Source: Gammaproteobacteria bacterium
GTDB lineage: Bacteria > Pseudomonadota > Gammaproteobacteria > SZUA-140
Assembly (NCBI GenBank): GCA_026981935.1
Contig: JALSIC010000010.1
Location: 13,131 to 77,130, forward strand
DNA length: 64,000 nucleotides
Reading direction: 5' to 3'
How positions within the stretch are numbered: position 1 is the first letter of the stretch; every line of letters starts with the position of its first letter. The translations under genes and the position numbers were made by a program. Below are positions 58,735 to 63,448 of the stretch, in pieces. The notes under the pieces were generated by a model that saw only the letters and a program-made list of their open reading frames with translations, searched no databases and was not told the DNA's origin.

Positions 58735-59478
58735 TCACCGGGACGCATCGATGGCCTGCTGCAGAACCGCCATCACCTCTTCATGCTCGTTCTTGCGGGC
58801 CCAGGTCATGGCGGTCTCGCCGTCCTTGTTGCGGGCATTGACATCGGCCCCGTTTTCCAGCAGCAGCTCAACCATCTCCAGGTGCCCCTGGCGCGCCGCC
58901 CGCATGAGGGCGGTATGCCCGTCACGGGCCTGGTGGTTCACATCGGCGCCCTTGTCCAGCAGCAGCCGGACGATATCGCGATGTCCGAGAAAGGCAGCCA
59001 CCATGAGGGGGGTGAGGCCGTTCTTGTTCTGCCTGTCCACCTCGGCACCCCGTTCCAGGAGCATTTCGATCATTTCAGGATCGTCCTGCATGGGCATGAT
59101 GAGCAAGGCGGTGTTGCCCATGCGGTCGATGTCGTTGACCTTGGCGCCACGGTCCAGTAACTCCCGCGCCAGGTCCTTGTACCCGCCGGAGATGGCCAGC
59201 ATCAGCGGTGTCACGCCCAGGTCCCCCTTGGCATTGACATCGGCCTGCTTGTGCAGGAGGCTGCGGGCCACGTCCAGATACCCCTTGCGAATGGCCACGG
59301 CCAGTACCGGATCGTCGGCCGGGTTACGGGCATTGACATCGGCGCCCTGCTCGATGAGCGCCAGCGCCCTGTTCACGTCGCCTTCGTCCAGGGCGTCCAC
59401 CAGGGGCGAACGACCGCAGGCCGCCAGCAGCAACAGCAGGCTGCCCACCAGGATTGTCATTGCATTGGTTTTCATCAT
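58735..59478 (-). CDS. Ankyrin-repeat lipoprotein
   Basis: Lipobox LLLLAACG followed by ~6 ANK repeats (G-TPLM-A...GH...LL--GADVN). The long ORF to 59910 is an upstream overextension. Confidence 0.75.
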   Translation of the reverse strand: MMKTNAMTILVGSLLLLLAACGRSPLVDALDEGDVNRALALIEQGADVNARNPADDPVLAVAIRKGYLDVARSLLHKQADVNAKGDLGVTPLMLAISGGYKDLARELLDRGAKVNDIDRMGNTALLIMPMQDDPEMIEMLLERGAEVDRQNKNGLTPLMVAAFLGHRDIVRLLLDKGADVNHQARDGHTALMRAARQGHLEMVELLLENGADVNARNKDGETAMTWARKNEHEEVMAVLQQAIDASR

Positions 59479-59531
59479 CCCATCAAGCACGTTCTGACCA
59501 GGGTCTCCCGGAAGGGGGCAATTGTACATGA

Positions 59532-60302
59532 TTACGGCGCATGCGCCTCTTTCCAGATGAGGGTGGCCATCCGACCGGTCACGCCATCGCGGCGATGGGA
59601 AAAAAAATGCTCGCGCGCCCGCCAGGTACACCAGCCACCACCGCTGACCGAGGTCACACCGCAGGCTGCCAGGCGCCGCCGCGCCAGGGCATAGAGGTCG
59701 GCATGCCAGCGCCCCCCTGCCGCCGGCCGGAAGGCCCCGGCGCAGCCCCCGTCCCGGGCGAGAAACGACGCGCGCACCTCGTCTCCCACGACAAAGGCCT
59801 GTGGGCCGATAGCCGGTCCCAGCCAGGCCAGCAAGGCGCCCCCGCCGGCCGCCGCCAGGGCTGCCACACCGGCCTCGACAATGCCGGTCGCAAGTCCCCG
59901 CCAGCCACAATGCAGGGCGGCAACCCCCCGGCCGTCACGCGTACAGAGCAACAGTGGCAGGCAGTCCGCGGTCAGCACGGCACACACCACGTTCTCGTCA
60001 CAGGTAAAGAGACCGTCGGCCTGGGCATTTTCTGCACGGGATGCCTCCACCACCACTGCCCCGTGGACCTGCCGCAACCAGCGGGGCTGCGCGGGCAGGC
60101 CTGCTTCGCGCACCAGGCGGGCGCGGTTCTCCGCCACCGCCGGCGGCGCATCACCCACGTGGGCGGCGAGATTGAGACTGTCGTAGGGAGGGCGGCTCAC
60201 CCCTCCCTGGCGACAGGTGGTCAGGGCCCGCACGCCGGATGGCGCGTCCCATGCGGGCACCAGCCATTCCAGCAATCCCGTATGCTCCAGACCTTCTTTC
60301 AA
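59532..60302 (-). CDS. pgeF: Peptidoglycan editing factor PgeF (YfiH/DUF152 laccase-domain protein)
   Basis: LFTCDENVVCAVLTADCLPLLLC...HCGWRG motifs. It is 4-nt-coupled to rluD, as in E. coli. Confidence 0.8.
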   Translation of the reverse strand: MKEGLEHTGLLEWLVPAWDAPSGVRALTTCRQGGVSRPPYDSLNLAAHVGDAPPAVAENRARLVREAGLPAQPRWLRQVHGAVVVEASRAENAQADGLFTCDENVVCAVLTADCLPLLLCTRDGRGVAALHCGWRGLATGIVEAGVAALAAAGGGALLAWLGPAIGPQAFVVGDEVRASFLARDGGCAGAFRPAAGGRWHADLYALARRRLAACGVTSVSGGGWCTWRAREHFFSHRRDGVTGRMATLIWKEAHAP

Positions 60303-61351: not shown

Positions 61352-61430
61352 GGAACCGTTTTGTCTTTGCTGGCGAATCTGTTCATAATGGCGGAATGCG
61401 CAAGACCTGCCCGCGCGGTCCCGGGTAACG

Positions 61431-62645
61431 ATGACTCCTTCAAACAACAGGCTCATATTAACATTCCTGCTGTGGGCGCTGGTCATGGGCTTGCTGTCGG
61501 GCTGCGCCCTGCCATCGAAGCGCGCCGGTTCCGCCGGCGACGAGGACCCTGCCCGCACGCTTTACGAATCCGGCAGAACGGCCTTGCTGGCCCAGGACTA
61601 TGACCGGGCCATCGACCTGTTCCGGCGCCTGGAAATCCTCCACCCCGGCCATGCGCTCATCCCCCAGGCGCGCATGGAACTGGCCTACAGCTATTACAAA
61701 TCCGGTGACACCCTGTCGGCGATGGCAGCGGCGGAGCGCTTCATCCGCGACTATCCCCGCCATCCCAGCGTGGATTATCTCTATTACCTCCGGGGGCTGG
61801 CCGCCTACGAACAGAGCATTGCCTTCCTGAACCAGCAGGCCGAAGGCGAAACGCCCGCCACGCCACCCTTGATCCAGCTCGCGGTGCAGTACTTCGACGT
61901 GCTCATCGAGCGTTTTCCCACCAGCAAATACGGCGAGGATGCCCGGACACGCCTTGCCCATCTGCAGGATGCCCTGGCCCGCCTCGAGATTCACCAGGCA
62001 AAGCGTGCCCTGGCCCGGGGCGAATATGCCACGGCAGCGCTTCATGCCCGGGCGGTAACGGAAAAATACCCCCAGTCGGGTCACAGCCGGGAGGCCGAGG
62101 CCCTTCTCGGGATGGCCGGTCGTGCGCTGGAACAGGAACCCCGGATGAAAGCCCGGCTCATTACGCCTGCCGGCGAAACAGGCGCCCCCCCGAAAACAGC
62201 GGCATCTTCAACGGACGCAGCACAAGATCCGGCCATGCAGGCGGCAGGCAATGCCGACGACACCCCTGCCGGCGAGGAAAGCCAGACTGCATCGGCCTCC
62301 CCCAGAAGCGATGCGCTGGCGGCGGCCGAAGACTTCGGCCGGCGCGGCGCGGCATGGCTGTCACGTCAGCCGCCTCACCTCTTTACCCTGCAATTGCTGG
62401 CCACCGCCAACCGTGACGCACTGCTGGCCTTCGTCTCCCGTCACAAGCTGCAGGCACAGGCCGCCTATCTTACCGAACGGCGCAATGACCGCCCCTGGTA
62501 CACCCTGCTCTACGGTCTCTATCCCGACCGACGCGCGGCGGTCAAGGCAGCGGCCGCCCTGCCCCCGGCCGTCCGCAAGCTGAAGCCCTGGCCGCGCCGC
62601 GTGGGTGTCCTCCAGGCCCGGCTCGAGACGACCACCACGCCATGA
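61431..62645 (+). CDS. BamD-like TPR lipoprotein paralog fused to a C-terminal SPOR-like domain
   Basis: Lipobox LLSGCA and a BamD/YfiO-like TPR region (residues ~40-250). A Pro/Ala-rich linker follows, then an ~80-aa C-terminal module (FTLQLLATANRDALLAFVSRHKLQ...WYTLLYGLYPDRRAAVKAAAALP) that resembles SPOR domains. Confidence 0.7.
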   Translation: MTPSNNRLILTFLLWALVMGLLSGCALPSKRAGSAGDEDPARTLYESGRTALLAQDYDRAIDLFRRLEILHPGHALIPQARMELAYSYYKSGDTLSAMAAAERFIRDYPRHPSVDYLYYLRGLAAYEQSIAFLNQQAEGETPATPPLIQLAVQYFDVLIERFPTSKYGEDARTRLAHLQDALARLEIHQAKRALARGEYATAALHARAVTEKYPQSGHSREAEALLGMAGRALEQEPRMKARLITPAGETGAPPKTAASSTDAAQDPAMQAAGNADDTPAGEESQTASASPRSDALAAAEDFGRRGAAWLSRQPPHLFTLQLLATANRDALLAFVSRHKLQAQAAYLTERRNDRPWYTLLYGLYPDRRAAVKAAAALPPAVRKLKPWPRRVGVLQARLETTTTP

Positions 62646-63448
62646 GGAGAAAAAGCCAGACATCCCGGCCTCGATATGACATGCGCGCAGGACCGCTGCA
62701 TTTATCCCTTTTTATTGCGATACTACTGGCGCTGGGTGGTGGTTGTGCAACGCAAGACAAGGCACTGGGCGAACTGAGCAGCGCCGCCCGCCTCTACGCG
62801 GAGGGCCGCAAGGCGCTGGACGAGGGATACTATGAGATCGCCATAGAAAAATTCGAGCAGCTGGAAACCCGCTATCCCTTCGGGGAATACGCACAGCAGG
62901 CGCAACTGGACATGGCCTACGCCTATTACAAGTCCGACAATCCGGCCTCGGCGGTGGCGGCGGCCGACCGTTTCATCAAGACCTATCCCCGCCATCCTCA
63001 TGTGGACTACGCTTATTATCTCCGCGGACTGGCGAACTTCGCGGTCGGCGGAGACTTCTTCGACCGCCTTCTCAAGGAAGACCCGGCAAAACGGGACCCG
63101 CGCCCGGCGCGGGAGGCTTTTCGCTATTTCGCGGAACTGGTAACCCGCTTTCCCGACAGCCCCTATGCGGCGGATGCCCGGGCACGCATGCTCTATCTGC
63201 GCAATTTCCTGGCACGCCACGAACTGCATGTCGCCCGCTTCTACATGCGGCGCGGGGCCTACGTGGCGGCACTGAACCGCGGTCGCACGGTGCTCGAGAC
63301 CTATTACCAGACACCCGCCGTGCCCGAGGCGCTGGCGCTCATGAGCGAGGCCTATGACGCGCTGGGCCTGGCGCAACTGGCGGCCGAGACGCGCCGCGTG
63401 CTGGAACTGAATTACCCGGGACGTCTCGCACGGAAAGGAAAAGACTGA
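62642..63448 (+). CDS. bamD: Outer membrane protein assembly factor BamD (canonical)
   Basis: Lipobox LALGGGCA; RYPFGEYAQQAQLDMAYAYYKS and ARFYMRRGAYVAALNR closely match E. coli BamD. The start overlaps the upstream stop (ATGA). Confidence 0.85.
   Translation: MRRKSQTSRPRYDMRAGPLHLSLFIAILLALGGGCATQDKALGELSSAARLYAEGRKALDEGYYEIAIEKFEQLETRYPFGEYAQQAQLDMAYAYYKSDNPASAVAAADRFIKTYPRHPHVDYAYYLRGLANFAVGGDFFDRLLKEDPAKRDPRPAREAFRYFAELVTRFPDSPYAADARARMLYLRNFLARHELHVARFYMRRGAYVAALNRGRTVLETYYQTPAVPEALALMSEAYDALGLAQLAAETRRVLELNYPGRLARKGKD

Follow-up and report, generated by a model that had tools for sequence, protein, structure and literature searches.

What might a BamD-like lipoprotein that ends in a SPOR domain be doing next to the canonical bamD gene of a gammaproteobacterium? 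The question is raised by two plus-strand open reading frames (ORFs), ORF1 (61431-62645, 404 aa) and ORF2 (62642-63448, 268 aa), in the six-frame ORF list of a 64,000-nucleotide stretch of assembly GCA_026981935.1 (contig JALSIC010000010.1, positions 13,131 to 77,130 of the forward strand). We refer to this whole stretch as the window, and positions follow its own numbering. The two proteins are 42% identical across 223 residues (E 2e-44). An earlier reading of the DNA, here called the original prediction, took the genes for tandem, translationally coupled BamD paralogues, the second being the clear orthologue and the first a BamD-SPOR fusion. We show here that ORF1 is a lipoprotein with a complete BamD fold of five tetratricopeptide repeats (TPRs), a flexible linker of ~60 residues and a C-terminal DamX-type SPOR domain.

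ORF1 combines a lipid anchor, a BamD fold and a SPOR domain

ORF2 is the canonical member of the pair. Its family scores (Table 1) and the gene order around it bear out the view of two tandem paralogues with ORF2 as the orthologue. The lipobox cysteine of ORF2 lies in LGGGC, and the protein retains the RYPFG motif together with the equivalents of E. coli Y185, R188 and R197 (Y201, R204 and R213). It has 6774 homologues at E ≤ 1e-20, and the nearest named ones are of Chromatiales type, including Thioalbus denitrificans at 60% identity. Both proteins score below the cut-off of 363 bits of the enterobacterial equivalog NF008119, ORF1 with 92 bits and ORF2 with 213 bits.

ORF1 begins with a lipoprotein signal peptide. 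The lipobox cysteine, Cys25, is shared by 16 of 16 family members, and the orthologues have an MTPS start in common; together these features fix the start of the gene at 61431. Residue +2 after the lipobox is Ala and, because the E. coli-type Asp retention signal is absent from this position, ORF1 is expected to be sorted to the outer membrane and anchored there.

The BamD-type TPR domain is supported by sequence profiles and by structure. ORF1 matches Pfam YfiO (PF13525) at residues 38-235 (E 5.5e-43, 147.5 bits, cut-off 25) and scores 170.3 bits with TIGR03302 (BamD), whose cut-off is 81.4. An AlphaFold2 model, built with 16 family members as input, has a mean predicted local distance difference test (pLDDT) score of 80.9, and its residues 40-244 form TPR helices at pLDDT >90. 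When the model was compared with the PDB by Foldseek, the top matches were the BamD proteins of N. gonorrhoeae and E. coli (E 7e-11 to 1e-9), with a TM-score of ~0.8, normalised on the target, for E. coli BamD. The TPR domain is followed by the disordered linker, the length of which varies across the fusion family from 1 to 173 residues, with a median of 52.

With respect to the C-terminal module, a search with PF05036 matched SPOR where the original prediction had placed it, at residues 317-389, with an E value of 1.4e-11 and a score of 44.9 bits, the gathering threshold being 21. Residues 306-400 are modelled at pLDDT ~90 in the expected beta-alpha-beta-beta-alpha-beta order (strands E318-325, E344-351, E354-364 and E387-390; helices H328-337 and H367-375). 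The SPOR domain of DamX (PDB 2lfv) is matched both by sequence (E 7.3e-12) and by fold (Foldseek, E 2e-4). In DamX, Q351, S354 and W416 are needed for septal localisation, while R380 and K418 form a basic patch (PMC6895207). The first three residues align to ORF1 Q321, A324 and W387 and the basic pair to R351 and R389; DamX W364 aligns to F334. Q321 and W387 are conserved in at least 90% of 49 fusions. Score, fold and the glycan-binding residues of the sheet face (Gln, small, aromatic, basic patch) all place the module among SPOR domains, and we regard the identification of a BamD-SPOR fusion lipoprotein as solid.

Outside the fusion family, the nearest SPOR domains score ~100 bits per domain against the family SPOR profile. 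They are carried by P0185, P0193 and P0200 (AAA_22 plus two SPOR domains), by P0187 (Sel1 plus SPOR) and, as C-terminal SPOR domains, by P0233 (cadherin, autotransporter and three SPOR domains). The N-terminal modules of these three architectures are unrelated to that of ORF1. Such AAA_22, Sel1 and autotransporter proteins of Gammaproteobacteria are possible donors of the fused domain.

Distribution, synteny and selection

The fusion is not confined to the window. A 5.8-billion-protein database at 90% identity holds 16 full-length homologues (35-100% identity). We also searched 1.84 billion representatives at 50% identity exhaustively with HMMER and applied domain hidden Markov models to the result; BamD and SPOR occurred together in 49 of the best 150 hits, and the fusion is carried by at least 49 clusters at 50% identity. 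In alignment A4, which has 49 sequences, Pfam YfiO is matched in 49 of 49 and Pfam SPOR, at E ≤ 1e-3, in 46 of 49. A third protein search with the 49-sequence profile gained only four new distant members, and a contig scan with a six-sequence SPOR alignment, one narrow pattern, returned two loci, both in metagenome-assembled genomes (MAGs) of Gammaproteobacteria. All fusion members with a named source are likewise Gammaproteobacteria MAGs, in which the proteins are labelled 'outer membrane protein assembly factor BamD' or 'putative lipoprotein'.

In 7 of the 49 fusions the BamD domain is shortened to ~150 residues and is followed by two SPOR domains. This sub-group, in which TPR1-3 are present, comprises P0163-P0168, P0170 and P0175 and includes the gene at L019:110-1486. 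On L019, a short contig, the two-SPOR gene precedes a BamD-like lipoprotein gene without the canonical Y185, R188 and R197 pattern.

The position of the fusion gene is constant. In 9 of the 9 loci with enough flank, pgeF and rluD diverge from the fusion gene, which is followed by canonical bamD, and this includes loci whose fusions are 25-29% identical to ORF1. The original prediction correctly recognised the divergent arrangement of E. coli, since the neighbours in the window have the same order as yfiH-rluD and bamD of E. coli K-12. In the cultured relative Thioalbus, def, ACT, pgeF and rluD are followed, in divergent orientation, by bamD, nitroreductase, P-II and NAD synthase, and the fusion gene is absent. 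Because Thioalbus shares the neighbourhood without the fusion, we interpret the fusion gene as a tandem duplicate inserted at the promoter side of an ancestral bamD. The presence of pgeF in both E. coli and the fusion-less Thioalbus also marks this neighbourhood as ancestral and thus uninformative on fusion function, and the proposal that pgeF offers a functional clue was rejected for this reason.

The predicted translational coupling did not hold as a family trait. In the window, the ORF1 stop overlaps the first ATG of ORF2 within ccATGAgg. Over the nine loci, however, the spacing between the fusion and bamD is -4, -4, -1, +5, +5, +47, +60, +61 and +343 nt; an overlap occurs in the window, L003 and L007 alone, while gaps of 5-343 nt separate the two genes in the remaining six. 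Even in the window the overlap depends on the start codon of ORF2. A second in-frame ATG at 62681 (Met14), the start chosen by one gene caller, yields a 255-aa protein with a normal 22-residue lipoprotein signal peptide and leaves a 35-nt gap between the genes. Of the 13 residues encoded between the two ATGs, four differ from those of the L003 orthologue, whose TPR domain is otherwise 96% identical, and because of this divergence the overlap may not mark the real start of ORF2. The ~60-nt spacers between fusion and bamD at L005:6192-6252 and L009:6120-6179 contain a perfect TATAAT, which suggests that canonical bamD has its own promoter in these two genomes.

Substitution patterns indicate that the gene is maintained. 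We computed the ratio of nonsynonymous to synonymous substitution rates (dN/dS) for the window against the 88%-identical orthologue in L003. The ratio is 0.16 for the TPR domain of ORF1, 0.20 for its SPOR domain and 0.77 for its linker, compared with 0.14 for canonical bamD; a second, distant pair of fusions gave 0.12-0.24. The reading frame is intact in all orthologues read, down to 25% identity. The fusion family is old and under purifying selection. The concern, raised with the original prediction, that the first gene might be a pseudogene is excluded by the low ratios in the folded domains together with the conserved family. A broader doubt, that ORF1 is a decaying or non-functional duplicate or that its SPOR match is spurious, could draw on its low-complexity linker and on its faster evolution relative to the canonical copy. 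Against this stand the purifying ratios in both folded domains, the intact frame in every orthologue, and a SPOR score of twice the gathering threshold with fold and key residues kept, and we consider this reading extremely improbable. The best explanation is that ORF1 is a functional gene derived from a tandem bamD duplication that acquired a SPOR domain.

Divergence of the BamD module and a proposed role of the fusion

In a neighbour-joining tree of 103 BamD domains, every fusion except one falls into the same long-branched clade (bootstrap 51/80, 64%). Their canonical partners fall into a separate, short-branched clade among ordinary gammaproteobacterial BamDs. TPR-domain identity among fusions is 27-69% where the canonical partners from the same genomes have 54-81%, and the fusions evolve roughly twice as fast as their partners.

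To locate this divergence, we compared 46 canonical BamDs with 47 fusions at the residue level, using E. coli BamD (sequence identical to 5d0o_D) as the ruler. Y36, P63, P100, D106, Y107, Y110, F147, P155, S157, Y159, D162 and R166 are among the positions common to both groups, which are structural and signature positions. In contrast, Y185, A190, L215 and Y222 are conserved in at least 90% of the canonical proteins and in fewer than 50% of the fusions. Y185 (98% Tyr in canonical BamDs) is mostly Ala in fusions and A193 in ORF1, while A190 (91% Ala) is mostly Asp or Asn in fusions and E198 in ORF1. L215 (93% Leu) and Y222 (96% Tyr) are mixed in fusions and correspond to E223 and G230. R188 (89% Arg) is also mixed, with ORF1 keeping R196. 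At R197, Arg is found in 46 of 46 canonical BamDs; the fusions have R 25, H 15, Y 3, Q 2, G 1 and L 1 in this column, ORF1 having His205 (62043-62045). F64 and G65 of the PFG loop, conserved in canonical BamDs, are lost in fusions and replaced by G73 and H74 in ORF1. ORF2 keeps all canonical residues at these divergent positions. The relaxed positions cluster in TPR4-5 and in the TPR1-2 loop.

R197 sits at the interface with POTRA5 of BamA, and bamD(R197L) suppresses the lethal salt-bridge mutation bamA(E373K) (PMC6529637). R197A and Y62A lower porin assembly while the complex still forms (PMC10945584). The conservation pattern suggests that constraint on the BamA-coordination surface is relaxed in the fusions, from which a loss of BamA binding does not follow. 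Because invariant TPR4-5 residues, including the R197 equivalent, are lost, membership of ORF1 in the machinery for beta-barrel assembly (BAM) cannot be assumed.

A separate case is found on L018, a 3.4-kb metagenome contig, where a partial fusion paralogue (1-192) whose C-terminus is SPOR is followed by P0158 (389-1804). P0158 scores 234 bits with YfiO, keeps PFG, Y185, R188 and R197, and continues into a ~140-residue Pro/Ala linker that leads to SPOR (Pfam 28.9 bits), so that both tandem BamD copies of this contig bear SPOR. Since P0158 keeps the canonical residues and carries SPOR, a SPOR domain on a genuine BamD exists in nature, and P0158 hints that the fusion arose a second time.

On balance, we lean towards the view that ORF1 is a septum-targeted, BamD-derived accessory scaffold that stands beside canonical BamD and couples an outer-membrane process to septal peptidoglycan. 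SPOR domains attach to glycan strands from which division amidases have removed the peptides, and so gather at the septum (PMC6895207; reportedly also Yahashiri, 2015, as cited in PMC12772221), and RlpA illustrates that an outer-membrane lipoprotein can use such a domain (PMC6895207). In ORF1, the lipid anchor would hold the TPR module beneath the outer membrane, and the linker would let the SPOR domain reach the peptidoglycan; by our own estimate, ~60 disordered residues are long enough for this distance. Binding of the SPOR domain to amidase-denuded glycan would then concentrate ORF1 at the constricting septum. The process coupled in this way may be the handling of nascent outer-membrane proteins (OMPs) or the constriction of the outer membrane. 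ORF1 would work alongside canonical BamD and would not replace it in the BamA-BamD core, its TPR4-5 surface, including the Arg that coordinates with BamA POTRA5, having been freed from constraint. The tethering of BAM by ORF1 suggested in the original prediction is a plausible hypothesis.

Several observations weigh against the accessory-scaffold view. The fusion members with a named source all come from uncultured MAGs or metagenomes. The neighbour-joining tree is crude, and its support for a single origin is only moderate. Arg is kept at the R197 column in 25 of the 47 fusions, and the E. coli BamD variants R197A and R197L are still incorporated into BAM and sustain growth (PMC10945584, PMC6529637). 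We also looked in the TPR domain for fusion-specific conserved residues (≥85% in fusions, <30% in canonical BamDs) and found none; because no position is conserved in fusions yet variable in canonical BamDs, no new binding site is evident there.

There are two other readings of the gene. In one, which follows the original prediction, ORF1 is an alternative BamD subunit that docks onto POTRA5 of BamA as BamD does; the additional BAM complex so formed would be tethered to denuded peptidoglycan at the septum and would focus OMP insertion at the division site. The full BamD fold with a score over the TIGR03302 cut-off speaks for such a subunit, as do the retained BamD signature RFPxSxYxxDAxxR and DYxYY motif (P155, S157, Y159, D162, R166, D106, Y107 and Y110). 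The gene always adjoins bamD and is probably co-transcribed with it; a plus-strand terminator-like site was looked for between ORF1 and ORF2 in the window and none was found. The canonical-type P0158 itself bears a linker and SPOR, and E. coli R197 mutants still enter BAM (PMC10945584). In addition, OMP biogenesis in E. coli is biased towards the septum: OMPs are inserted preferentially at division sites, BAM activity is sensitive to how mature the peptidoglycan is (PMC9242858), and BAM is enriched at midcell (PMC8620860). Nevertheless, Y185, R188, A190, R197, L215, Y222, F64 and G65, invariant or nearly so in the 46 canonical BamDs, are relaxed in the fusions, the fusions evolve at about twice the rate of their partners, and canonical BamD is always retained, and we consider an alternative subunit rather unlikely. 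If it were true, OMP insertion at the division site would be hard-wired in these bacteria, whereas the bias in E. coli is indirect, through peptidoglycan maturation, and the SPOR-bearing BamD of L018 would represent the same solution reached independently.

In the other reading, ORF1 lies outside the BAM pathway and serves at the septum as an adaptor or tether of the outer membrane, comparable to NlpI, LbcA and WthA or to Pal/CpoB, which link outer membrane and peptidoglycan while the cell constricts; its SPOR domain would deliver a TPR scaffold to the septum. The relaxed BamA-side invariants would fit such a role, and so would the resemblance of the TPR domain to CpoB/YbgF (TIGR02795 E 7.6e-12; Foldseek 2xev E 5.7e-5). 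The sub-group P0163-P0175, with two SPOR domains and without the C-terminal third of the BamD domain, is hard to square with BamD function but would suit an adaptor or tether. Furthermore, TPR lipoproteins are documented as hubs for peptidoglycan enzymes, NlpI, LbcA and WthA scaffolding or activating peptidoglycan hydrolases (PMC12772221). However, a peptidoglycan hydrolase or tol-pal gene is linked in 0 of the loci read, the TPR domain has no fusion-specific conserved patch, and the BamD-specific motifs are still conserved, which makes a role apart from BAM more doubtful still than an alternative subunit.

Local features, known systems and significance

The features of the locus are collected in Table 1. 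Both the maximal rluD ORF and the called 385-aa version overrun the start of ORF1 on the opposite strand, and rluD orthologues are 315-335 aa long. The true rluD start is probably further downstream in the gene, at Met70 (61351), giving 350 aa; this start leaves a 79-bp divergent intergenic (promoter) region before ORF1. One promoter-like site was found before ORF1, a weak consensus match alone, against 0.4 expected from shuffles. An Rfam scan of the window returned four tRNAs alone and no match near the ORF1/ORF2 locus.

Table 1. Features of the fusion-bamD locus (positions in the window)
Feature	Position	Strand	Evidence or remark
pgeF/yfiH homologue	59532..60302	-	PF02578 E 1.3e-73; second gene of the divergent rluD-pgeF operon; ancestral context
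rluD, maximal ORF, 419 aa	60299..61558	-	PF00849 E 4.7e-34 and S4 domain from residue 113; divergent from ORF1
Sigma-70-like promoter match, TTGTCT-17-CATAAT	61361..61389	+	Consensus match, weak; 42 nt upstream of the ORF1 start codon
ORF1, 404 aa	61431..62645	+	
Lipoprotein signal peptide and lipobox of ORF1	61431..61505	+	MTPSNNRLILTFLLWALVMGLLSG, then C; LLSGC, Cys25
BamD-type TPR domain of ORF1, residues 38-244	61542..62162	+	PF13525, TIGR03302, AlphaFold2 model, Foldseek
Disordered Ala/Thr/Pro/Ser-rich linker of ORF1, residues 245-305	62163..62345	+	pLDDT <50 at residues 245-300
DamX-type SPOR domain with short leading helix, ORF1 residues 306-400	62346..62630	+	PF05036, 2lfv, AlphaFold2 model
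ATGA stop/start overlap of ORF1 and ORF2	62642..62645	+	Real overlap only if ATG 62642 starts ORF2
Canonical bamD (ORF2), 268 aa, or 255 aa from ATG 62681	62642..63448	+	PF13525 245.7 bits, TIGR03302 287.7 bits

Two other regions of the window were noted. Between pgeF and a ZIP transporter, an ankyrin-repeat protein is encoded at 58735-59910 on the minus strand (Ank_2 E 3.7e-56; lipoprotein-type signal LLLLAAC; likely ~264 aa). A gene of 243-265 aa, with no precomputed Pfam match, occupies the same position in L001, L003, L005, L007 and L009; a periplasmic or lipoprotein ankyrin protein kept in the bamD neighbourhood is unusual. Further away, at 26653-35081 and 38795-40748 on the minus strand, lie ORFs of 1401 and 1379 aa, the sizes of rpoC and rpoB, together with a 397-aa ORF of the size of EF-Tu and a tRNA cluster Tyr-Gly-Thr plus Trp. 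Judged from ORF sizes and tRNAs, this layout fits a standard tuf-rpoBC region.

ORF1 can be compared with several known systems. It resembles BamD (YfiO/ComL) in its lipoprotein signal, its five-TPR fold, its DYxYYxRG and FPxSxYxxDAxxR motifs and its position beside rluD-pgeF. It differs in being encoded by a second gene copy beside canonical bamD, 30-43% identical to its own partner and faster evolving by about twofold, and in lacking the PFG motif and the conserved Y185, A190, L215 and Y222, with His at the R197 column. The solved BamDs (chains of 218-273 aa, one of 341 aa) lack the ~60-residue linker and SPOR of ORF1. With DamX, ORF1 shares the SPOR subtype, including the conserved localisation and glycan-binding residues. 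DamX, however, is a bitopic inner-membrane protein with a cytoplasmic domain, whereas ORF1, a lipoprotein, carries a BamD TPR module; the DamX equivalog NF008153 gives ORF1 53.2 bits, below its cut-off of 256, and matches the linker and SPOR region alone.

The topology of ORF1 recalls that of RlpA, in which a lipid anchor and a functional module are followed by a SPOR domain directed at denuded glycans of the septum (PMC6895207). Where DamX has S354, RlpA has Ala, as does ORF1 (A324). The RlpA module is a double-psi beta-barrel lytic transglycosylase, whereas ORF1 is a TPR scaffold with no enzymatic domain among its Pfam matches. Coupling of the outer membrane or of BAM to peptidoglycan is a concept shared with RmpM of the Neisseria BAM and with Pal/CpoB. 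These are separate polypeptides whose OmpA-like domains bind peptide-bearing peptidoglycan; in ORF1, by contrast, a BamD paralogue carries a fused SPOR domain, whose specificity is for denuded glycan. The CpoB/YbgF model TIGR02795 gives ORF1 45.9 bits, below its cut-off of 90.1, and the likeness is limited to the TPR fold. In N. meningitidis, RmpM is counted as a further subunit of BAM (PMC13067283).

Both domains, and the topology of a lipoprotein with a SPOR domain, are already known. In the full-text literature on BamD/YfiO with SPOR and on BamD paralogues we found incidental co-mentions only, and the subunits named in a 2026 review of BAM diversity include RmpM, BamF and those of Bacteroidota, with neither a SPOR-bearing nor a duplicated BamD among them. 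The BamD-SPOR combination, the conserved tandem arrangement with bamD and the occurrence in at least 49 sequence clusters appear undescribed, in agreement with the original prediction, which had not recognised the arrangement as a known one.

The fusion proteins currently carry plain 'BamD' or 'putative lipoprotein' labels, so their recognition matters for annotation. More broadly, the finding bears on how OMP insertion and outer-membrane constriction are coordinated with septal cell-wall synthesis in Gram-negative bacteria, and a natural fusion of a BamD scaffold to SPOR beside bamD offers a ready-made genetic handle on the coupling of the outer membrane to the septum. If ORF1 belongs to BAM, a BAM lipoprotein with a dedicated reader of septal peptidoglycan would be known for the first time; if it acts outside BAM, the BamD fold would have been recruited to a new function at the division site.

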